Shown here piece after piece: positions 546 to 47,802 of a DNA stretch of 64,000 bases. The position numbers and the translations under genes were made by a program. Where the stretch lies: positions 229,301 to 293,300 of the forward strand of contig JBBTCT010000022.1 in NCBI GenBank assembly GCA_038060895.1, read 5' to 3'. Position 1 is the first letter of the stretch. The number at the start of each line of letters is the position of its first letter. The notes beneath the pieces are model-generated. The model was given only the letters and a program-made list of their open reading frames with translations, did no database searches and was not told the origin of the DNA. The DNA is from Planctomycetota bacterium (GTDB taxonomy: Bacteria > Planctomycetota > MHYJ01 > WSZJ01).

Positions 546-2369
546 ATGAGTTCTGCTTCCTGCGCTTGGCAAGGCTCTGTCTCTTCCTTCCTGGAAACTT
601 CGGAGGAACGCGTCCTTTCCGATCTCACCGCGTTTCTGCGCGAAACCGGCGCGCCTCAGATCCTCGCCTGGGATCGCTCTCTCCGCGTCTTGCGAGACCA
701 GCTCCATACGTGTATGCCCGACGCCTCGAACTTCGCACTCGTCCTCGAATTCGAACTTCCGCGAAGCGGTGGCAGGCGCCCGGACTTGATCGTTCTGGAG
801 AACGGCCTCGTCCTCGTCATCGAATTCAAGAATCGCGTAACTGCGGAAGCGGCGGACCTCGCCCAGGTGAAGGGGTACGTGCGCGACCTCGAGGACTACC
901 ACGCCGCTTGCCGCGGCAAGACGCTCGTTCCGATCCTCGTGCCGATCGGGATGGAAGGGGAGCCCGAGGAGCGTGACGGCGTGCGCGTCGTCCCGTCGCG
1001 TCTGTTAGGCAGGGTGATTCGCGAGATCTCCAAAGGCGGCGAGGGGAAGCGCGGCGACGGGGAAGCGTTCGTTCTGGCACCATTTGAGCCTCTCCCCGCT
1101 CTTGTCGACGCCGCACGCCTACTATTCGAGCGCAAGCCTCTCCCTCGTATCAGAGCTGCCGAATCGGCACGCATCCCGGCGACGGTGGCCCGCCTCGAGC
1201 GGCTCGCTCGAGAAGTGCGCGGCACCGGAAGGCGGTCGCTCGCGCTTGTCTCGGGAGTGCCGGGAAGTGGCAAGACGCTTGTGGGTCTTCAACTGGTGCA
1301 CTCGCGCGACCTCGGTGTCCCGGCGGTGTTCCTCTCCGGAAACGGGCCGCTCGTCAACGTTCTCCAGTACGTCCTGGAGAACAAAGAGTTCGTGCGCGAC
1401 ATGAAGAAATTCATTCACGACCACCTCGTGCGTACGACCTCGGCGCCGCGGGAACACGTCGTTGTGTTCGACGAAGCGCAGCGAGCGTGGGACCGAGACC
1501 GTGTGCTCAAGAAGCATCGCGGGGCACTGGCGGACGGCGAGCCGGCTCTTCTCGCGAGGATTGCGACCAAGGTGAGCGACGGATTTGTGCTTGTCGCCCT
1601 GATCGGGACAGGGCAGGAGATCCATGAGGGAGAAGAAGGCGGGATTGCCCAGTGGGTGGGCGCGCTGAAAGAGGTCGGCGGGTGGGATGTGCTTGGACCC
1701 CCCGGGTACCGGGAGGAATTCGTGAAGGCCGGAATCGAATACACGGCGGATGACCTGCTTCATCTCACGGTAGCGCTTCGGAGTCACAGGGCGTCCGACA
1801 CGGCTCTGTGGGCCGGGCTCCTTCTTGAAGGTCGCCTGACCGAAGCGGCGAGCGTCGCTGCCGGCATGCGCGACAACAATTTCGAGATTCTCGGTTCACG
1901 ATCGCTGAACGCTCTTCGCGACTATGCGCGTGAGCGATACAGCAATGAGTCCGGAAAGAGGTTTGGGCTGGTGACTTCGTCGAGATTCCGAAATATCGAC
2001 GAGTACGGAGTGCGAACGCCACCCGCGAAATTCTTTCCGCATGGGCCGTGGTATGAGAGCCATCGTGACGATCCGAAATCCTGTTGTCGCCTCGAGGTCG
2101 CCGAAACGGAATTTGGATGCCAAGGACTGGAGCTAGACTTTCCGATCGTCTGCTGGGGACCGGACCTTGTCTGGCGCGGAGCTCACTGGGAAGTGGTGAT
2201 CAAGCGACGGAATCCCGACGTAAGGAATCCGGCCAAGCTGAGGCTCAACGCATACCGAGTCCTCCTGACGCGCGGCCGAGACGGCATGGCCGTGTTTGTG
2301 CCTCCTGGCCAAGCCGGAGACGCAACCTGGAGTGCACTCTTGGCGGGCGGGATCCGCGAACTGGCTTAG
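546..2369 (+). CDS. DUF2075-family protein: N-terminal PD-(D/E)xK-like nuclease motif fused to SF1-like P-loop ATPase
   Basis: Motifs PDLIVLE...VIEFK (D-E-K), Walker A GVPGSGKT, Walker B VVVFDEAQ; 607 aa single ORF. Confidence 0.75.
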   Translation: MSSASCAWQGSVSSFLETSEERVLSDLTAFLRETGAPQILAWDRSLRVLRDQLHTCMPDASNFALVLEFELPRSGGRRPDLIVLENGLVLVIEFKNRVTAEAADLAQVKGYVRDLEDYHAACRGKTLVPILVPIGMEGEPEERDGVRVVPSRLLGRVIREISKGGEGKRGDGEAFVLAPFEPLPALVDAARLLFERKPLPRIRAAESARIPATVARLERLAREVRGTGRRSLALVSGVPGSGKTLVGLQLVHSRDLGVPAVFLSGNGPLVNVLQYVLENKEFVRDMKKFIHDHLVRTTSAPREHVVVFDEAQRAWDRDRVLKKHRGALADGEPALLARIATKVSDGFVLVALIGTGQEIHEGEEGGIAQWVGALKEVGGWDVLGPPGYREEFVKAGIEYTADDLLHLTVALRSHRASDTALWAGLLLEGRLTEAASVAAGMRDNNFEILGSRSLNALRDYARERYSNESGKRFGLVTSSRFRNIDEYGVRTPPAKFFPHGPWYESHRDDPKSCCRLEVAETEFGCQGLELDFPIVCWGPDLVWRGAHWEVVIKRRNPDVRNPAKLRLNAYRVLLTRGRDGMAVFVPPGQAGDATWSALLAGGIRELA

Positions 2370-3815: not shown

Positions 3816-4094
3816 ATGTCAACGCTTCCCGACCACGGCGACTTCTTCGTCAAAACCACGCTCAACGAAGACCTCAAGGCGATTCGCCAGGCCACCGAGA
3901 TGGCGAAGCAGAACCCCTCGAAGCCGGGGCACTACTGGCTGCGGGCGGTGATCAAGGGGGACGGGCCGGAAGGGAAGTTCGAGGTGATCAAGATGTATCA
4001 CGTGGACCTGAACGCGGGGATCGTGGAGATCACGGAGACGATGGAAGGCGAAGAGCGGGCGCGGCGGACGCGCAAGCTGGACGATCTGGGGTAG
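3816..4094 (+). CDS. small hypothetical protein
   Basis: 92-aa ORF directly downstream of MTase, same strand. Confidence 0.45.
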   Translation: MSTLPDHGDFFVKTTLNEDLKAIRQATEMAKQNPSKPGHYWLRAVIKGDGPEGKFEVIKMYHVDLNAGIVEITETMEGEERARRTRKLDDLG

Positions 4095-30203: not shown

Positions 30204-30725
30204 ATGGACGCAACGAAACCGGAAGTCGCCGCTCCAGCACCGCCCGCGCCGCTGGCCGACCCGCGCGTGGACAAGCTCCTTGAAAAGATCGGGATCCTTG
30301 AGCAGCTTTTCGTGAAGCGCATCAAGGACGACCAGGCGCACGCGGCGGCGTACAACACGCTGTACCAGGACATGTCGAAGTACCGGGACGACGCGTTCCG
30401 GGGGGCGCAGAAGTCGCTTCTCAAGGGTCTAGTGCTCATTTACGACACGATGAAGCGGTCCATTTCGGGGATCGGGGACGGGACGGTGCGCGAGATGGTG
30501 AACCTGCACGTCGAGGAACTGCTCGAGCTGCTTCATCGCCACGACGTCGAGCGGATGCCGGACACGCTGGGAAAATTCGACCGGAACGTGCAGCAGGCGC
30601 TGGGGACGGAGCCGGCGGCGACGGCGGAAGAAGATCAGACTGTTGCGCGAGTGGTGCGTGACGGGTTCAAATGGGGGACTCAGGTGTTGAGGCCGCAGGA
30701 AGTAGTGATTAAGGTAAAAAAGTAG
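30204..30725 (+). CDS. grpE: nucleotide exchange factor GrpE
   Basis: C-terminal VVRDGFKWGTQVLRPQEVVIKV matches the GrpE beta-domain. Confidence 0.8.
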   Translation: MDATKPEVAAPAPPAPLADPRVDKLLEKIGILEQLFVKRIKDDQAHAAAYNTLYQDMSKYRDDAFRGAQKSLLKGLVLIYDTMKRSISGIGDGTVREMVNLHVEELLELLHRHDVERMPDTLGKFDRNVQQALGTEPAATAEEDQTVARVVRDGFKWGTQVLRPQEVVIKVKK

Positions 30726-30765
30726 TAGGGAGCAGGGGGTAGTGGGTAGTTGGTAGGAAAGGCAA
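30721..30765. repeat. GGGGGTAG(T/G)GGGTAG-type intergenic repeat
   Basis: agggggtagtgggtagttggtagg; related copy in inverted arrangement at 34621-34680. Confidence 0.5.
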
Positions 30766-30788
30766 AGACTCTTAACAGGAGACCGTCC

Positions 30789-32378
30789 ATGGCCGACCAG
30801 AAGACGCCGATGACGTGCGGGATTGACCTGGGCACGACGAACAGCGCCATCGCGTTCATCGACGAGCACGGCAAGGCGCAGGTGATCCAGAACACGGACA
30901 ACGAGCGGATCACGCCCTCGGTCGTGCTGTTCGAGGAGAAGGAAGTCATCGTCGGCAAGATCGCCAAGAACTCGGCGGTGGCAGCGCCGGACCGGGTAGT
31001 GCAGTTCGTGAAGCGGCACATCGGCGAAGAGGGCTGGGTGAAGACGTACTTCGGGACGGAGTACACGCCCGAGACGATCAGCGCGCTGATCCTGAAGCGC
31101 ATCGTGCAGGACGCCGAGAAGGTGAGCGGCGGCAAAGTTGGGAGCGTGGTGATCACGGTTCCGGCGTACTTCAACGAAGTCGAGCGCAAGGCGACGCAGG
31201 ACGCGGGGACGATCGCGGGCCTGAACGTCGTCTCCATCCTCAATGAGCCGACGGCCGCGGCGCTGGCTTACGGGCTGGACCGGCTGGGCGAGAAGAAGCG
31301 CGTCCTGGTCTACGACCTGGGCGGCGGGACGTTCGACGTGACGATCATCGAGATCGACGGCACGAAGATCGACGTGCTGGCGACGGACGGCGAGCGGCGG
31401 CTGGGCGGCATCGACTGGGACGACGAGATCATCAACATGGTCTCCGAGAAGTTCCAGGCGGAGCACGGGATCGACCCGCGCAACGACCTCGAAGCGTGCC
31501 AGGACCTGCGCAACAAGGCGGAAGACGCGAAGATCAGCCTGTCGAAGCTCGAAAAGGTGCGCATCCTCTGCCAGTGCCAGGGCAAGACGACCAAGGTCGA
31601 ACTGACGCGCGAAGATTTCGAGAAGATCACCAAGGGCCTGCTCGACCAGACCGAGACGTACCTCGGGGTCGTGCTCCAGAAGGCGAAGCTCGCCTGGAAG
31701 GACATCGGCACCGTCCTGCTCGTCGGCGGCATGACCCGCATGCCCGCCGTGCAGGGCATGATCCAGCGTGTCACGGGTCTTAAACCCGAAACCGGCATCA
31801 ACCCCGACGAATGCGTCGCGATGGGCGCCGCCTACTACAACGCCGTCCTCGCCCTCCAGGCCAAGCCGTCCGAGGAGCCCGAGCTGGCGCTTCAGGGCGA
31901 AGCGCTGAAGGAGTCGATCGACGAGGAAGTCATGATCCTGCTGCAGGGCGTCGAGGTCACGAACGTGAACTCGCACTCGCTGGGCATCGTGGGCATCCAC
32001 AAGAAGACCGGCAAGCTGGTCGCGTACAAGATGATCCCGAAGAACACGCCGATCCCGGCCGACATCACAAAGCCGTTCGGGACGGAGAAGGAAAACCAGG
32101 TCAGCGTGCAGATCAAGATCGTCGAGGGCGAAGGCGAGACCCCCGAGGATTGCACGGAGATCGGGATGTGCGAGATCAAGGACCTCCCGAAGGGCCACCC
32201 CGCGGGCTCGATCATCGACGTGACCTACTCGTACAGCGTCGACGGCCGACTGCAAGTCACAGGCAAGGACCGCCTGTCCGGCAAGGAGGCCAGGGTCGAG
32301 ATCGTCCGCGCGAGCGGTATGGATGACAAAGAGATCAAGGAGGCGAAGAAGGACGTGGTTGAGATGGAAGTAGGCTAA
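30789..32378 (+). CDS. Hsp70-family chaperone, short form (no C-terminal lid/EEVD)
   Basis: GIDLGTTNS, DLGGGTFD, VLLVGGMTRMP motifs; about 530 aa. Confidence 0.85.
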   Translation: MADQKTPMTCGIDLGTTNSAIAFIDEHGKAQVIQNTDNERITPSVVLFEEKEVIVGKIAKNSAVAAPDRVVQFVKRHIGEEGWVKTYFGTEYTPETISALILKRIVQDAEKVSGGKVGSVVITVPAYFNEVERKATQDAGTIAGLNVVSILNEPTAAALAYGLDRLGEKKRVLVYDLGGGTFDVTIIEIDGTKIDVLATDGERRLGGIDWDDEIINMVSEKFQAEHGIDPRNDLEACQDLRNKAEDAKISLSKLEKVRILCQCQGKTTKVELTREDFEKITKGLLDQTETYLGVVLQKAKLAWKDIGTVLLVGGMTRMPAVQGMIQRVTGLKPETGINPDECVAMGAAYYNAVLALQAKPSEEPELALQGEALKESIDEEVMILLQGVEVTNVNSHSLGIVGIHKKTGKLVAYKMIPKNTPIPADITKPFGTEKENQVSVQIKIVEGEGETPEDCTEIGMCEIKDLPKGHPAGSIIDVTYSYSVDGRLQVTGKDRLSGKEARVEIVRASGMDDKEIKEAKKDVVEMEVG

Positions 32379-32379
32379 G

Positions 32380-32556
32380 GACAGGCTGGCATAGGCTGGC
32401 GGAGGCTGCGGAGGCTGGCGGAGGCTTTGGCGCAAAGGGAGGCAACCCCCTATGAGTAAGCGCCGACGCAATCGCCAGCCCCGATTCAGCCGACGCCTTT
32501 AGCCTTCGCCAGCCTCCGCCAGCCTCTGCCAGCCTCCGCCAGCCTCTTCACTACCC
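32380..32556. repeat. inverted tandem arrays of GGCGGAGGCT(G) repeat (long hairpin potential)
   Basis: Left arm aggctggcggaggctgcggaggctggcggaggct; right arm its reverse complement agcctccgccagcctctgccagcctccgccagcctc. Confidence 0.65.
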
Positions 32557-33771
32557 ATGCCTGAAAACCGCTTCCACGAACTTCTGGGCCTCCCAGAAGA
32601 GGTCTCCGACCCGGACTATTACCAGCTCCTGGGCGTGCCACGCTCCGAGAATGACGCCGCCGCAATCGAGGCGTGCTTCAAGGAGAAGATGACGCATGTC
32701 CAGCACATCGAGAACCCGCGCCACAAGGAGTTTCTCGAGTTTCTCAAGGGGGAGCTGAAGCGCGCCCGGTCGATCCTGACCGACGAAGAGCGGCGCGGCG
32801 AGTACGACCGCGAGCTGGCGGAGGAGCGCGGCGACGAGCTTCGGAAGGTGCTGTCGCACATGCTCGTGGACGGGACGCTGAGCTCGATCGCCGAGGTGTC
32901 GGTCTTCCGCGAGGGTCACAATCTCGGGCTGAGCGGCGAGTTCGTGAAGCAGGTCGTGGACGAGGAGTTGAAGAAGGCGGGGGCGCGCCGCGTCTCGGTC
33001 GCGACGGGGACCAACGGGCACCAGACGCAGGTCCTCATGAACCAGAAGGCGCAGGAAGTCGCGCGCCAGATGCAGGAAGCCCGCATGGCGGCGCGCATCG
33101 CCGACACGCGCGCGAAGATCGCGGAGACGCACCAGAAGAAGGCCGAGGAGCAGGTGCAGGTCGTGCTGCAGAAGGCCCGCGTGGCCGAGGTCCAGAAGAA
33201 GCAGGCCGTCGAACTGGCGCAGGAAACCCGCGAACGCGCGCGGCAGGCCGAGATCCACAAGATGCGCGCCGAACAGAAGGTCCAGGCCGTCACGCAGAAG
33301 GCCCGCGAAGCCGAGACGCTCGCGCGCAAGGCGATTACCCGTGAGCACCTCGCCGCCGCCCGCCACAAGATGTCCGAACAGGAACGCAAGCAGCTCGAAG
33401 CCGGCATGAAGGAGGCGGAGACCCGCTTCCAGGCCTACGTCGAAGCCTCCAACGAAGAACTTGAGTCGGTCCGTGAGAAAGGCATGGCAGGGCGGCGCCT
33501 CACGATGTGCTACGCCCTCCTCAGCATGTCGCTCGTCGCCGGCGCCGCGCTGCCTAAATACGTGCCGGGCGCCGCTTCCGCCATCACGAAACTGCTCGAA
33601 CCCTATGTCTCCAGGGTCAGCGGCATTCCGCACGCGGCCCTGCCGCTCATCGCCATCGCAATCCTGCTCCCGACGCTTCATTGGCTGGCAGGGACGCGGG
33701 CCACCGGGTTCTTCGCGCCGCTGCTGGTTATCCTCGCGCTGGCCGTCGCGGCGGGCGTGCTGCGGGGATAG
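32557..33771 (+). CDS. membrane-anchored J-domain-like protein (HPD motif absent) with long coiled coil
   Basis: N-term DYYQLLGVPRSENDAAAIEACFKEKMTHVQH resembles a J domain but lacks HPD; C-terminal TM helices. Confidence 0.6.
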   Translation: MPENRFHELLGLPEEVSDPDYYQLLGVPRSENDAAAIEACFKEKMTHVQHIENPRHKEFLEFLKGELKRARSILTDEERRGEYDRELAEERGDELRKVLSHMLVDGTLSSIAEVSVFREGHNLGLSGEFVKQVVDEELKKAGARRVSVATGTNGHQTQVLMNQKAQEVARQMQEARMAARIADTRAKIAETHQKKAEEQVQVVLQKARVAEVQKKQAVELAQETRERARQAEIHKMRAEQKVQAVTQKAREAETLARKAITREHLAAARHKMSEQERKQLEAGMKEAETRFQAYVEASNEELESVREKGMAGRRLTMCYALLSMSLVAGAALPKYVPGAASAITKLLEPYVSRVSGIPHAALPLIAIAILLPTLHWLAGTRATGFFAPLLVILALAVAAGVLRG

Positions 33772-43285: not shown

Positions 43286-43573
43286 AGCATCGTACGCGCG
43301 GGGCTGCTGTCGCGCGAGTGGCAGGGGGAATAGTCGCCGGAACGCTCAGCCGAGATCGTATAAAATAAGTACTCTGCGCTGCTTAATGATATGCGTGGCT
43401 GGAGTCTGACGCACAGCGAATTTCAACGGGATTATGCACTTGACAAACTTAAAATCCATGAACGAAACTCGTACAGGCATCATGGTTTGCGTCGATTATG
43501 GCCCCGCGATTAAACGAATAAGAAAATCGCCAGAGTCCCGTTTCAGGACGCGATTTTGGCCCGCGACGAGGAT

Positions 43574-43702
43574 TCAGGACTTACGGCGAGGTTTCCCGGC
43601 CTTCTTAGCCCGCTTCAGGGGGGGTGTAGCGAGGGCCTTCCGGATCATGGCGTCGAAGTCCACGCGGGTCACTTCTCGGTGGCTCTCTGGCTTGGGTTTC
43701 AT
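43574..43702 (-). CDS. small basic ORF (42 aa) inside the element
   Basis: RBS AAGGAG 8 nt upstream of ATG; Lys/Arg-rich tail. Confidence 0.25.
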   Translation of the reverse strand: MKPKPESHREVTRVDFDAMIRKALATPPLKRAKKAGKPRRKS

Positions 43703-43748
43703 CTATCTATCTCCTTGGGGGTTATCAGGCTGATTCCCCTAGAAAGTA

Positions 43749-43777
43749 TTTGACAGCGTCTGCGGCGCAGCTTAGGA
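43749..43777 (+). promoter_or_regulatory. sigma-70-like promoter TTGACA-N17-TAGGAT
   Basis: tttgacagcgtctgcggcgcagcttaggat; downstream ATG at 43786 would be nearly leaderless. Confidence 0.4.
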
Positions 43778-43785
43778 TTTCCCAG

Positions 43786-44175
43786 ATGCGAAGGAACAAC
43801 AAGATCGTGAGCCTTGGAGAGGAAATCGCGGCGAAGCGCCGGGAGCTGGCGGCGCTTGAGGCCGAACTTGACATCGAAGTCAGGCGGTATAGCGGTGGTC
43901 ATGCGAAGGCTCCACAAGCGGTGGTGACACCGCCTAGACCTGCGGACCCTGAAGAGGTCCTTCTGAGTGATGCCATCATCGCTGGCAAGGTGGTGCCTCT
44001 CTTGGACAGGGAGCCGGATCGGGTGTTCACCGTGGATGATATCACAAGATTGACCGGAGTGCCGCGCCACCTTCTGGTGATGTCTATCGGGCGCATGGTG
44101 CGCTGGCACAAGGTCCACAAAGTGGAAGCTGGCAAGTACAAGGCATCCACGGTTAAGAAAGCGATGGAGGGATAA
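43786..44175 (+). CDS. hypothetical protein with coiled-coil N-terminus and winged-helix-like C-terminus (element passenger/regulator)
   Basis: Alternative start at 43750; followed by hairpin ccctcgg-N7-ccgaggg. Confidence 0.45.
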   Translation: MRRNNKIVSLGEEIAAKRRELAALEAELDIEVRRYSGGHAKAPQAVVTPPRPADPEEVLLSDAIIAGKVVPLLDREPDRVFTVDDITRLTGVPRHLLVMSIGRMVRWHKVHKVEAGKYKASTVKKAMEG

Positions 44176-44215
44176 AGAAAAACCCTCGGTCGTTGGCCGA
44201 GGGTGTACGTCGGTT

Positions 44216-44307
44216 GGAGAGGTGTCCGAGTGGCTTATGGTGCTGGTTTCCAAAACCAGTGAACGGTGGTGACACACCGTCCGAGGGTTCGACTCCCTCC
44301 CTCTCCG
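44216..44307 (+). tRNA. class-II tRNA, Ser-like body (acceptor GGAGAGG, G73) with anticodon CCA (reads UGG)
   Basis: Hand-folded: acceptor GGAGAGG/CCTCTCC, anticodon stem CTGGT/ACCAG, loop TTCCAAA, 23-nt variable arm with 6-bp stem ACGGTG/CACCGT, T-arm GAGGG-TTCGACT-CCCTC. Confidence 0.6.
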
Positions 44308-44325
44308 TTTTGCTGTTCTGAGGCT

Positions 44326-44420
44326 GGCCGGGTGGCGGAACTGGTTTACGCGCCCGACTTGGAATCGGGTGGTTGTCTCTTGACGGGGGCACCATGCGGG
44401 TTCGAATCCCGTCCCGGTCA
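44326..44420 (+). tRNA. class-II tRNA, Leu-like body (D-arm GGCGGAACTGGTTTACGCG, A73) with anticodon UGG (reads CCN)
   Basis: Acceptor GGCCGGG/CCCGGTC, anticodon stem CCCGA/TCGGG, loop CTTGGAA, long variable arm, T-arm GCGGG-TTCGAAT-CCCGT. Confidence 0.55.
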
Positions 44421-44541
44421 GTCTCATTTTTGAAAGATCGAAGCGCCTTTGCGAAGTGCTTGAGGCTGGCGCGTGTCAAAAGAATACAACAAGACTGGGT
44501 GCGTGTCAACTTGCGAAATTGACGCACCGCGCCAACTCTGA

Positions 44542-45495
44542 CTAGCGCTTCACATCCCGCTTTGGCGCTTCCAGAGTGAGGCGTTTTCCTTCGGTGCGCT
44601 GGATCGCGTCGAGCATCTTCGCCCCGTCTGACTTCTTCCGGTTGTTGAACGTCCAGAGGTAGGAATCGAGGTACTTCGGAAGGTAGTCATGCCCAACGCC
44701 GTGGAAGATGCCCACGATGGAAGTCTTGAAGTTGGCGAAGAGGCCCTCAACGCCGTTCGTCGTGACGTCCCCACGGGCGTACTCTTCGATGGAGTGGTTG
44801 ACGGTTTCATGCTTCACCATCATCCGCCCTGGCGTGACGTACAGCTTGGATTCGTCTGAGTGAAGCACCGTCCGCTTGGGATCAACGTTCTTCATTACGA
44901 AGCGGCGGATGTCCCGCGCGTTGGCCTTGGGCGCTGGCTTGACGACGGCACGCGCGGACCCTCCACGCTGAACCAGCGCCAGCACGGTTGACTTCTTCAC
45001 GGCCTTGCCACGGCGCGATCCGCGCCCCTTGTGGCCGAAGTAGGTTTCGTCCGCTTCGATGATCCCGGCGAGTGGTGACTTGTCGGAGTTCTGGAGAGCG
45101 TGGCGCACCCGATGGCAGAGAAACCACGCGGTGCGATAACTGCCGAGTTCAAGGTGCCGCTGGATTGCCAGCGCCGAGATTCCTGTCTTGCTGGACGAAA
45201 TGAGGTAGAAGGCCAGCAGCCACTTGTTGAGCGGGATGTGGCTGTCCTCGAAGATCGTGCCAACGGTGCAAGTGAACTGCTTCCGGCACGCCACGCAGAA
45301 CAGCAGCCCCTTGCGAATCTTCTTCTCCGCGTCTGGCTTGAGCCGGGCGACCTTCTCGCGTTCGGTGCAGCCACAGTGCGGGCAAACGGGGCCAGAGGGC
45401 CAGCGCACCGCTTCGATGTAGTTACGCGCGGCGTCCTCGTCTGGGAAGAGAGAGAAGATGTTCGTCAGGCTCACGGCATCGGGCGTCGGGATCAT
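44542..45495 (-). CDS. IS1595-family (ISXO2-like) DDE transposase
   Basis: N-terminal zinc ribbon WPSGPVCPHCG; DDE core around IIEADETYFG. Confidence 0.85.
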   Translation of the reverse strand: MIPTPDAVSLTNIFSLFPDEDAARNYIEAVRWPSGPVCPHCGCTEREKVARLKPDAEKKIRKGLLFCVACRKQFTCTVGTIFEDSHIPLNKWLLAFYLISSSKTGISALAIQRHLELGSYRTAWFLCHRVRHALQNSDKSPLAGIIEADETYFGHKGRGSRRGKAVKKSTVLALVQRGGSARAVVKPAPKANARDIRRFVMKNVDPKRTVLHSDESKLYVTPGRMMVKHETVNHSIEEYARGDVTTNGVEGLFANFKTSIVGIFHGVGHDYLPKYLDSYLWTFNNRKKSDGAKMLDAIQRTEGKRLTLEAPKRDVKR

Positions 45496-45721
45496 GGGCG
45501 TCTCCTTTGAGTACGCCTAAAAGATACTAGATCATGCTTGTTTTGTCAAGTGCATAATCCCGATTTCAAGCTTAACATTATGATATTAAATAAGTTATGA
45601 CACATTGTCTGCAACGGTTCATTCGGCACGTGCGTTGCAATTCAATCTTGACGCGACCTGATCAACGAACGGTTGCGGCCTTCACTTCCCAAACAACAAC
45701 TCACCGATCGGAGAACGACCC

Positions 45722-46810: not shown

Positions 46811-47162
46811 CATGACGACAAGTTCCCTGCCGACGCCGACGGGCGAATCCGTTCCCATGACCAGCTTCCCGGCCTCTGCGCTCAAGAACTCCGCTGCGGA
46901 TGTCCTGGAGATGGTCCTGACCTCCGGCGCCGTTGTCATCACCCGACACGGCAAGGAGAAGGCCGTGATCCTGTCCGTCGAAGCCTACCGGCGACTCGTG
47001 GCTTCCCGCCGCGACGACCTGGACGTTCTACGCGCAAAATTCGGCGGGCTGCTAGCCAGAATGCAGACTCCCGCTGCGCGAAAGGGCGCACGGGCCGCCT
47101 TCGACGCTTCGCCGGATGAAATGGGCAAAGCAGCCGTAAAGGCGGCGCGCCGCCGTGGCTGA
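46811..47162 (+). CDS. Phd/YefM-family antitoxin
   Basis: RBS AGGAGG; core VVITRHGKEKAVILSVEAYRRL; AT-rich palindromic operator upstream. Confidence 0.7.
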
Positions 47163-47802
47163 CCGCCGCGCCGTCATCACCGTGCTCGCCGGCACGAATG
47201 GCGCCGGCAAGAGCAGCATTGCAGGAGCCACGATTCGTTCGCGCCAGGCGGACTACTACAACCCTGACGAAGCGGCGCGCGCTCACAAGGAAGCGCATCC
47301 GGAGGCGACTGCCGAAGAAGCGAACGCCGCTGCGTGGGAATTCGGCCGCCGCATGCTCGAAGAGGCCGCTCGTGAGCGGAAGAACTTCGCCTTTGAAACG
47401 ACACTGGGCGGCAACACGATCATGTTTCTTCTTGAGAATGCAGCGAATTCCGGTTTGGACGTGCGGATCTGGTACACCGGACTTGCTTCAGTCGAGTTGC
47501 ACCTCAAACGCGTCCGGCAACGGGTCCGCCTGGGAGGTCACGACATTCCCGAGGAAATGATCCGGCGCCGCTATGAGAACGGGCCCCGGAACCTGATCCG
47601 CCTCATGCCGAAGCTCGCCTCGCTGCGCGTCTACGACAACAGTGCCGCAGGGGATCCCGCCGCGGGAGTGGCTCCGAAACCAGTTCTTGTTCTGCAGATG
47701 GAAAAGGGCCGAATTGCCGGGCCGAAGGATCTGTCCCGGACTTCCGAATGGGCGAAATCGATCGTCGCGCGGGCCATGGAACTTCACTCGGCGCCCAGGT
47801 AG
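47155..47802 (+). CDS. zeta-toxin-like P-loop kinase (toxin of TA pair)
   Basis: P-loop [11 protein letters not shown]; 8-nt overlap with antitoxin gene; GTG start. Confidence 0.7.

Follow-up and report, generated by a model that had tools for sequence, protein, structure and literature searches.

A serine-type tRNA with a tryptophan anticodon beside a conserved family of hybrid tRNAs carried by IS1595-family insertion sequences

Introduction

Natural tRNAs whose body and anticodon belong to different amino acids are rare; they are known mainly as allo-tRNAs and as the tRNAProX of Streptomyces, and their purpose is unclear. A 64-kb stretch of DNA from a Planctomycetota metagenome-assembled genome (MAG; contig JBBTCT010000022.1), hereafter the window, holds such a gene, a tRNA with the body of a serine tRNA and the CCA anticodon of tryptophan. 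This flagged Ser-type gene, which we call tRNA1, lies within an insertion sequence (IS) of the IS1595 family, 2,136 bp long and spanning 43427-45562 (coordinates throughout are positions in the window), and is followed by a downstream neighbour, tRNA2. The question raised by the locus is what an IS might gain from such a tRNA. An earlier sequence-only reading had proposed that tRNA1 is charged with serine and decodes UGG, or else serves as a decoy or inhibitor; it mentioned neither tRNA2, which is the conserved and better-evidenced gene of the two, nor a U10.U25 mismatch in tRNA1. We approach the question through both tRNAs and through the transposase that accompanies them.

The flagged tRNA and its body

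ARAGORN calls two tRNA genes in the whole window, adjacent to each other, and these are tRNA1 and tRNA2. tRNA1 occupies 44216-44307 on the + strand; the ARAGORN call, 44215-44308(+) with anticodon CCA, is one base wider on each side through an added T.G pair, and the Rfam tRNA model matches 44216-44307 end to end with 48.8 bits (gathering score 29, E = 1e-8). The ARAGORN cloverleaf has a 7-bp acceptor stem (GGAGAGG/CCTCTCC) followed by G73, a 5-bp anticodon stem (CTGGT/ACCAG) that closes the 7-nt loop TTCCAAA with U33 and A37, an extra arm of 23 nt with a 6-bp stem, and a T-arm with stem GAGGG/CCCTC and T-loop TTCGACT. Every structural detail that the sequence-only reading had obtained by hand folding is thus reproduced (acceptor, anticodon stem, loop, 6-bp extra-arm stem, T-loop and G73), and the anticodon is CCA, as it had read it, and not another. 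The fold, at -39.6 kcal/mol, is more stable than that of shuffled sequence (z = -3.1). The 3' CCA is not encoded. Sub-threshold Rfam matches to sX4 and Plastid-psbl-rps4 over the gene were set aside as by-products of its tRNA-like sequence.

The nearest matches of tRNA1 are genuine tRNA-Ser(UGA) genes, in agreement with the Ser-type body assigned to it earlier. In distant BLAST matches to plasmid records the tRNA1 part alone is matched, at ~75% identity, and the genes matched lie within ordinary tRNA clusters. The acceptor stem, D-arm and anticodon stem are alike in tRNA1 and these genes, an A25-to-U change excepted. The anticodon loop is UUCCAAA in tRNA1 as against CUUGAAA in tRNA-Ser(UGA), with three positions changed and U33, A37 and A38 kept.

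These similarities extend to the features by which serine tRNAs are defined. tRNA1 has the class II architecture of tRNA-Ser with its long extra arm (stem of ~5-7 bp), and it has G73, G1-C72 and G2-C71 (PMC9976931) in an acceptor stem identical to that of genuine tRNA-Ser(UGA). It does not have a serine anticodon (NGA or GCU), CCA standing in its place. With tRNA-Trp, judged by the same rules (PMC9976931), it shares the CCA anticodon and G73, but it has a long extra arm and G1-C72 where tRNA-Trp has a class I body (4-5-nt variable loop) and A1-U72; alignment with E. coli tRNA-Trp shows generic tRNA similarity only.

Two other assignments were considered and rejected. Allo-tRNAs divide acceptor and T-stem as 8/4 or 9/3, and tRNA1 has a 7-bp acceptor with a 5-bp T-stem. 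Similarly, tRNA-Sec needs an 8/5 arrangement (13 bp), a 6-bp D-stem and the anticodon UCA, where tRNA1 has 7/5, a D-stem of at most three pairs and CCA. We regard the gene, its fold and its Ser-type body as demonstrated.

A conserved family of IS-borne tRNAs

tRNA2 (44326-44420, + strand; 44325-44421(+) in ARAGORN) starts 17 nt past tRNA1. It is a class II tRNA of 7/5 geometry with a tRNA-Leu body, A73 and the anticodon UGG in the loop CUUGGAA, and the Rfam tRNA model matches it from 44326 to 44420, end to end, with 55.5 bits (gathering score 29). Relatives of the transposase were retrieved from genomes (16 loci) and metagenomes (80 loci), each locus bearing an L-number below, and were searched for copies of this tRNA with ARAGORN, a motif scan and a covariance model. 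In 13 of the retrieved loci an over-long "tRNA-Pro" gene lies beside the transposase. Further copies occur in the element most closely related to that of the window (L098) and in viral contigs, where three copies again adjoin IS1595 transposases. On a census base of ~100 loci, many of them truncated, the family comprises 16 full members in 15 related IS1595 elements, the viral-contig copies being extra. Wherever both IS ends are present, the family tRNA sits between them. Of two simpler searches, Rfam at E < 0.01 did not recover the diverged copies in L002 and L003, and relaxed ARAGORN was too noisy on its own.

The family cloverleaf is strongly conserved as a structure. In the first 15 aligned sequences, 99.7% of cells in the cloverleaf are paired, against 39-46% in slid controls, and compensatory changes are found in 18 of its 20 pairs. 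U8, A14, A15, G35, G36, U48 and A73 are invariant in the aligned family. We further note a tertiary covariation that links the D-loop with the T-loop: the members with A18 (L052, L066, L081 and L098) are exactly those with G55, whereas the others have G18 in the D-loop with U55 in the T-loop (4/4 vs 12/12). The A18:G55 covariation suggests selection on the tRNA elbow. The anticodon is UGG in 13 of the 16 full members and AGG in the remaining three.

BLAST of tRNA1 and tRNA2 against E. coli genomes was uninformative, and genuine tRNA genes were instead scored on the family model, R1. On this model the members of the family range from 71 to 92 bits, tRNA2 among them with 87.5, and E. coli tRNA-Leu reaches 68.3 bits; other genuine tRNAs score lower (tRNA-Ser 34-48, tRNA-Pro 41-47 and tRNA-Tyr 40 bits). 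Because the model places tRNA-Leu above Ser, Pro and Tyr, we read the family tRNA as having the body of tRNA-Leu and a proline-box anticodon. At 31.7 bits, tRNA1 ranks with unrelated tRNAs and so falls outside this Leu/NGG family. On these comparisons, the conserved part of the cassette is the tRNA2 family and not the flagged tRNA1.

Cassettes with two tRNAs recur, in L069 and L117, with a partner unlike the Ser/CCA tRNA of the window. L069 carries two tandem family members (3899-3999 and 4007-4091, minus strand), both with anticodon UGG; L117 has two matches to the family model (1419-1513 and 1674-1779, minus strand), and a clear UGG loop is seen in the first only. The tRNA2 copy of L098 has the same CUUGGAA loop as the window copy and an aberrant T-loop, UGCGAGG. 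Pairing of the UGG loop with the 3' CCA ends of tRNAs, in the manner of a T-box, was considered as a general function of the family and is unlikely, as the three AGG members would pair with CCU.

A dedicated proline codon in the transposase

One codon of the transposase is matched to the anticodon of the family tRNA. In the window it is the CCA codon of Pro311 (44563-44565, - strand; the + strand reads TGG), at the end of the motif GKRLTLEAP, and it matches the UGG anticodon of tRNA2. In the transposase alignment this codon falls in column 412, where a proline ends the conserved C-terminal motif GKRLxYRxP. Column 412 is CCA in 14/14 UGG-type elements and CCU in 3/3 AGG-type elements, the latter class consisting of three members from two branches of the tree. 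Elements that have Pro at this column and no tRNA use CCU in 19 cases, CCG in five and CCA in three; in each of these three CCA loci a contig end cuts off the region expected to hold the cargo, and each belongs to a tRNA-bearing clade.

This constancy is confined to a single site. Among the 35 four- or six-fold degenerate columns shared by the UGG-type elements, column 412 is the only one with a single codon, and the other 34 use two to six codons. Mean pairwise codon identity at conserved degenerate columns is 0.32, indicating that synonymous sites are otherwise randomised. The covariation statistics treat the elements as independent, a treatment justified only indirectly, through this randomisation.

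Codon usage across the whole transposase points in the same direction. Avoidance of Pro codons was the pattern expected in the transposases, and enrichment of CCA in UGG-type elements was found instead: CCA makes up 27.2% of the Pro codons in UGG-type transposases vs 13.8% for NNA codons in other four-fold boxes (odds ratio (OR) 2.3, p = 2e-5), and CCU is depleted (OR 0.32, p = 6e-5). The tRNA-less relatives show neither CCA enrichment nor CCU depletion. CCA is the rarest Pro codon of the host, at 3.8%, as against 40% in the transposase of the window IS (OR 17, p = 2e-5). Avoidance of CCA in the other genes of the element would be a sign that the tRNA delivers a residue other than proline; CCA stands at 13% in the cargo genes vs 27% in the transposases (p = 0.02), a difference that is not significant when column 412 is left out (p = 0.2). 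As a side observation on the same genes, CCC accounts for 2/49 Pro codons in the cargo genes of AGG-type elements (L044, L049 and L066) and for 27/77 in those of UGG-type elements, a small sample.

The three-base match tracks the anticodon through both UGG/CCA and AGG/CCU, as ribosomal pairing predicts, and this argues for a function of the family tRNAs in translation of the transposase. On comparative evidence only, then, we take it that the tRNAs of the tRNA2 family act in translating the transposase of their own element. We take both the conserved family and its codon-anticodon covariation to be demonstrated.

Amino acid carried by the family

The tRNA2 family may deliver leucine or proline, and both readings have support in the sequences. 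E. coli leucyl-tRNA synthetase (LeuRS) ignores the anticodon and recognises A73, A15-U48, U8-A14 and the D/T-loop contacts (PMC9976931), and all of these are conserved in the family, the loop contacts as G18G19 or as a compensated variant. The strong determinants of prolyl-tRNA synthetase (ProRS) are G35, G36 and A73, to which bacterial ProRS adds G72 and G15-C48 (PMC9976931). Delivery of leucine would be favoured because selection for a single codon is easiest if the tRNA brings what the host tRNA-Pro would not.

The other possibility is that these NGG tRNAs with Leu bodies receive proline from ProRS and act as helpers for a host-rare Pro codon, in the manner of bldA and without mistranslation. 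Consistent with this, G35, G36 and A73 are invariant and position 34 varies between U and A, which is the recognition pattern of ProRS; the dedicated site is Pro in 86/111 homologues and Leu in three; the codon read is the one the host uses least for proline; and the L044 member has C1-G72, like bacterial tRNA-Pro. Against it, C72 and A15-U48 stand in place of the ProRS determinants G72 and G15-C48, every E. coli LeuRS determinant is conserved, the family model puts tRNA-Leu 20 bits over tRNA-Pro, and position 37 is mostly A and not the G37 of Pro tRNAs. Moreover, a host tRNA-Pro could read the same codon, which makes the absolute selection for a single codon hard to explain. We consider proline charging somewhat unlikely.

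A further proposal, that the hybrid tRNAs serve a "private genetic code" by restoring conserved residues, was rejected. There is no alignment column with Pro in the tRNA-bearing elements at which the relatives keep Leu. Of the four Trp residues of the window transposase, three align with Trp in 78 or 79 of the 79 other sequences, and the fourth aligns with Phe or Tyr and never with Ser.

Function of tRNA1

We tentatively favour the reading that tRNA1 is a translationally active hybrid tRNA that decodes UGG and is charged mainly with serine. Its origin is a gene of the tRNA-Ser(UGA) type in which the anticodon loop has become UUCCAAA, and tRNA1 and tRNA2 are tandem hybrid genes that travel as IS cargo, apparently co-transcribed with the gene of a small winged-helix protein. 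The anticodon of tRNA2 is kept in exact Watson-Crick match to a single proline codon of the transposase that is dedicated to it, and tRNA1 would likewise work on the ribosome, decoding UGG. Charging would be mainly by seryl-tRNA synthetase (SerRS), which acts through the long extra arm, G73 and G1-C72/G2-C71 and not through the anticodon, with tryptophanyl-tRNA synthetase (TrpRS) as a possible competitor, G73 and CCA being its main determinants. Expression would presumably be held low by the upstream winged-helix protein. In this scheme we infer transcription, aminoacylation, the amino acid carried by each tRNA and the benefit to the element.

Serine identity rests on the extra arm, the anticodon being ignored, and the major determinants of bacterial TrpRS are G73 and the CCA anticodon (PMC9976931). 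The earlier proposal that tRNA1 is charged with serine and decodes UGG therefore stands in part: the SerRS features are present and the enzyme ignores the anticodon, but charging need not be with serine only, as both TrpRS determinants are present too and Trp or mixed charging may occur. The gene is intact and probably expressed, and tRNA1 may plausibly insert serine at UGG.

Several observations weigh against the reading that we favour. tRNA1 carries both major TrpRS determinants, so that serine charging is not assured. Replacing Trp by Ser across the proteome would be harmful, and this speaks for very low expression or for another role. The D-stem contains a U10.U25 mismatch, the sole structural flaw of the molecule, which arises from the A25-to-U change relative to genuine tRNA-Ser(UGA) genes. 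In L098, whose transposase is 75% identical to that of the window element, whose gene order is alike and in which a tRNA2 copy is present, the tRNA1 slot is without a tRNA and holds acceptor-stem remnants only (GAGAGG...CTCCCTCTC). No other Ser-body/CCA tRNA was found among the ~100 related loci or in the viral collection. Finally, no UGG codon dedicated to tRNA1 was found, all five UGG codons of the element being Trp in L098 as well; the synonymous-codon test that identified the target of tRNA2 is impossible here because Trp has one codon. Residue 281 of the transposase (44653-44655, minus strand) is the one UGG codon of the element that does not fall on a conserved Trp; it is Trp in the window and in L098, Phe in 63 relatives and Tyr in 11.

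Some of these observations would be expected if tRNA1 were a decaying or neutral passenger, a captured tRNA-Ser gene with a mutated loop and D-stem and without function, tRNA2 alone being of consequence. The absence of tRNA1 from L098 and from everything else searched fits such a history, as do the mismatch in its D-stem and the variable material that other elements hold in its place. Between the winged-helix gene and the conserved tRNA, L002 and L066 have arrays of hairpins and L038 has a degenerate remnant, and in L044 and L049 the interval is almost empty. The hairpin arrays (L002 2074-2198, +; L066 4621-4755, minus) fill this interval and consist of three or four very stable hairpins with z = -5.4 and -4.9. 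The remnant in L038 (1300-1385, minus) is tRNA-like and lies upstream of the family tRNA; it has an acceptor-like helix with G3.U70, A73 and a good T-arm (ACGGG-UUCUAGU-CCCGU), and is without a proper D-arm or anticodon arm.

Decay would, on the other hand, be expected to leave a different tRNA1 from the one observed. The molecule keeps its four stems, T-loop, G18G19, U33 and A37 intact, and its Rfam score lies 20 bits over threshold. The three changes relative to tRNA-Ser(UGA) cluster in the 7-nt loop, with the flanking stem unchanged, and they produce the exact complement of the tRNA2 anticodon, for which the chance is ~1 in 64. The IS copy is also young, with perfect repeats and a target duplication, and the tRNA2 of L098 is itself aberrant, so that L098 may be the decayed copy. 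We therefore think a functionless passenger rather unlikely.

The TrpRS determinants lend themselves to another explanation, in which tRNA1 is charged by TrpRS, alone or together with SerRS, and is in effect an additional tRNA-Trp with an odd body, giving rise to slight mistranslation or none. G73 and C34-C35-A36 are the major identity elements for the TrpRS of E. coli and of B. subtilis, and tRNA1 has both; it also has G2-C71 and G4-C69, which matter in B. subtilis (PMC9976931). The long extra arm, G1-C72 in place of A1-U72 and A3-U70 in place of G3-C70 are foreign to tRNA-Trp, and the features that SerRS recognises are exactly those that tRNA1 retains. There is also no apparent reason for an IS to carry a redundant tRNA-Trp on a Ser scaffold, and we hold this explanation to be improbable.

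The two anticodons of the cassette raise a third alternative. The CCA of tRNA1 is the exact complement of the UGG of tRNA2, and the CCAAA of its loop is the mRNA context of the codon dedicated to tRNA2 (GCG CCA AAG). tRNA1 could thus be an "anti-tRNA" or codon mimic whose loop UUCCAAA pairs with the tRNA2 loop CUUGGAA, titrating tRNA2 off its dedicated CCA codon and tuning translation of the transposase. Six of the seven loop bases can pair, the tRNA1 loop is perfectly reverse-complementary to UUUGGAA, which five family members have as their loop, and the CCAAA context is present in the window element itself. The two genes, 17 nt apart, are presumably produced in equal amounts. tRNAs with complementary anticodons form stable dimers in classical in vitro work, which also counts for this alternative. 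It is weakened by the fact that most family members are without such a partner and that complementarity of U33 with A37 and of U32 with A38 is near-automatic from loop composition, which leaves the ~1 in 64 as the real coincidence. The intact SerRS features, T-loop and acceptor stem would not be needed, and there is no precedent. The decoy or inhibitor of the sequence-only reading gains some point from the exact complementarity to UGG and the copy of CCAAA; as an account of tRNA1 we rate an anti-tRNA as quite improbable.

An elaboration of this alternative combines both tRNAs in programmed, site-directed recoding: a Leu-charged tRNA2 would act at the dedicated Pro codon, where the catalytic domain ends, yielding Pro and Leu isoforms of the transposase, and tRNA1 would be the anticodon-complementary titrating partner that displays CCA-AA. 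This is a speculative scheme to which we give very little credence. If true, it would mean that a transposon carries a tRNA/anti-tRNA regulatory pair and would be the first mobile element with a private missense decoder for a codon of its own gene.

The host element and its cargo

The location of tRNA1 on a mobile element, proposed earlier from the sequence, is borne out by perfect 21-nt terminal inverted repeats, a 7-bp direct repeat and an IS1595-family transposase. The left inverted repeat (CGGGATTATGCACTTGACAAA, 43427-43447, + strand) is 100% complementary over 21 nt to the right one (45542-45562, - strand), which also holds a promoter-like TTGACA-17-TATCTT facing the transposase. The repeat occurs in two copies only in the window, none being expected by chance, and related elements across the subgroup retain its core ATTATRYACTTGAC at their ends. 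Copies of the heptamer ATTTCAA lie directly outside the left (43420-43426) and right (45563-45569) repeats as the target-site duplication, 7 bp here. In the IS1595 family this duplication is typically 8 bp. The IS copy is young and has recently transposed, as the perfect repeats and target duplication attest.

The transposase (P0002, 317 amino acids; 44542-45495, - strand) is convergent to the tRNA genes and named IS1595 family transposase by NCBI. It has a Zn-ribbon and a DDE domain (Pfam DDE_Tnp_IS1595, 2.3e-29; Zn_ribbon_IS1595, 5e-12), and this DDE transposase with an N-terminal Zn-ribbon, bracketed by inverted repeats and a target duplication, is what characterises an IS1595 element. The structure of the IS we regard as demonstrated. 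The same locus is present in an independent assembly (L017), and the genes around the IS are chromosomal. GC content is 59% in the IS region vs 66% in the flanks, and neither the IS nor its surroundings contain a synthetase gene.

Upstream of tRNA1 lies the gene of a 129-amino-acid cargo protein (P0001; 43786-44175, + strand), made up of a coiled coil at the N-terminus and a winged-helix-like domain at the C-terminus; a promoter-like TTGACA-17-TAGGAT (43750-43778) precedes the gene. A database search with this protein returned as its sole match the protein itself, in the Planctomycetota MAG, and a clear homologue lies at the same position in L098. Most tRNA-bearing elements have a comparable protein of 120-215 amino acids directly upstream of the tRNA and on the same strand, with the same two-part domain make-up. 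Pfam matches of the window protein to MarR_2, Penicillinase_R and PaaX are weak (below threshold). Its single-sequence AlphaFold2 (AF2) model has a predicted local distance difference test (pLDDT) of 67, and nearly all fold matches of the model, the best included, are winged-helix domains, none of them significant. A search for defence systems with PADLOC gave no match. We infer that the protein may be a regulator of a protein-tRNA operon. Between its gene and tRNA1 stands a GC-rich hairpin, CCCTCGG-loop-CCGAGGG (44182-44204), with a T-run on the minus strand only.

Divergent from this gene is a small basic open reading frame of 42 amino acids (MKPKPESHREVTRVDFDAMIRKALATPPLKRAKKAGKPRRKS; 43574-43702, - strand), preceded by AAGGAGA and called as a gene in L017. 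It is kept across the IS1595 subgroup in elements with or without a tRNA (one cluster comprises 23 loci), and most related elements have at the same position its motif (L)SLxPLxFExALxAAxxTGP with a Lys/Arg-rich tail. It matched no Pfam family, and pairwise BLAST of the relatives against the window copy is weak (E about 0.1 to 1).

Two further features of the window lie outside the IS. A pair formed by a PhdYeFM-type antitoxin (46812-47162, +) and a Zeta-toxin (47155-47802, +) is found ~1.2 kb to the right of the element. A cluster of GrpE, Hsp70 and DnaJ-domain genes at 30204-33771 (+) may represent an accessory chaperone system; its match to the DnaJ domain is weak, at 23 bits, and falls short of the Pfam cut-off.

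Comparison with known systems

Pairing of a specific tRNA with host-rare codons is familiar from bldA, the tRNA-Leu(UAA) of Streptomyces, and from phage tRNAs that match the codon usage of the phage. The IS-borne tRNAs resemble these in that gene expression is tied to codons rare in the host, here CCA with 3.8% in the host against 40% in the transposase. In bldA and the phage tRNAs body and anticodon agree, whereas here they disagree, the genes are borne by an IS, and a single transposase codon is held in register.

Closer in kind are the allo-tRNAs, bacterial tRNAs with a long extra arm, SerRS identity and many non-Ser anticodons, some of them near transposon-related or toxin-antitoxin genes (PMC5389517, PMC7609411), and some able to insert Ser at non-Ser codons in E. 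coli (PMC5389517). tRNA1 is like them in joining Ser identity elements to a non-Ser anticodon (Mukai et al. 2017, Nucleic Acids Res), but it has the canonical 7/5 geometry where they have 8/4 or 9/3. Neither the main text of PMC5389517 nor the review PMC7609411 lists the anticodons CCA or UGG, Leu-type bodies or a connection with IS1595. Coupling between the anticodon and a codon of a neighbouring gene, as seen in the tRNA2 family, has not been reported for allo-tRNAs.

The tRNAProX of Streptomyces and Kitasatospora, which is accompanied by ProRSx, provides natural dual-identity tRNAs for which deliberate mistranslation has been proposed (PMC11415595). There too body and anticodon come from different isotypes, but the direction is reversed, with a Pro body and Ala, Asn or Thr anticodons, and the tRNAs are class I, chromosomal and paired with a synthetase paralogue of their own. 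The IS tRNAs have class II bodies (Ser and Leu), are carried on an IS and come without a synthetase gene, and so do not belong to tRNAProX. tRNA1 is thus best described as a variant of the known hybrid-identity tRNAs, unrelated to tRNAProX.

Engineered mistranslating tRNAs, such as tRNA-Ser(UGG) in yeast and flies and anticodon variants of tRNA-Leu (PMC9258585, PMC11028032), share the underlying principle: SerRS and bacterial LeuRS ignore the anticodon, so that Ser or Leu goes to other codons once the anticodon is altered. Such tRNAs were made in the laboratory or occur as rare variants in humans, whereas the IS-borne tRNAs are natural, mobile and, at least for the Leu/NGG member, maintained. 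In a literature search with most subscription-journal papers outside it, we found no account of tRNA-carrying IS1595 elements, of a natural tRNA with a Leu body and a Pro anticodon, of hybrid tRNAs on transposons, or of a transposase codon in register with an element-encoded tRNA.

What is new here is the combination of hybrid tRNAs of canonical 7/5 geometry, their carriage as cargo of a simple IS, and comparative evidence for the codon that the conserved member reads. The annotation of such genes is affected, as they get called tRNA-Pro or tRNA-Trp, and the findings also bear on biocontainment in recoded organisms and on the regulation of transposases. The question of whether genetically encoded mistranslation ever has a specific target becomes directly testable in this family, and these elements indicate that insertion sequences can move decoding capacity between genomes.

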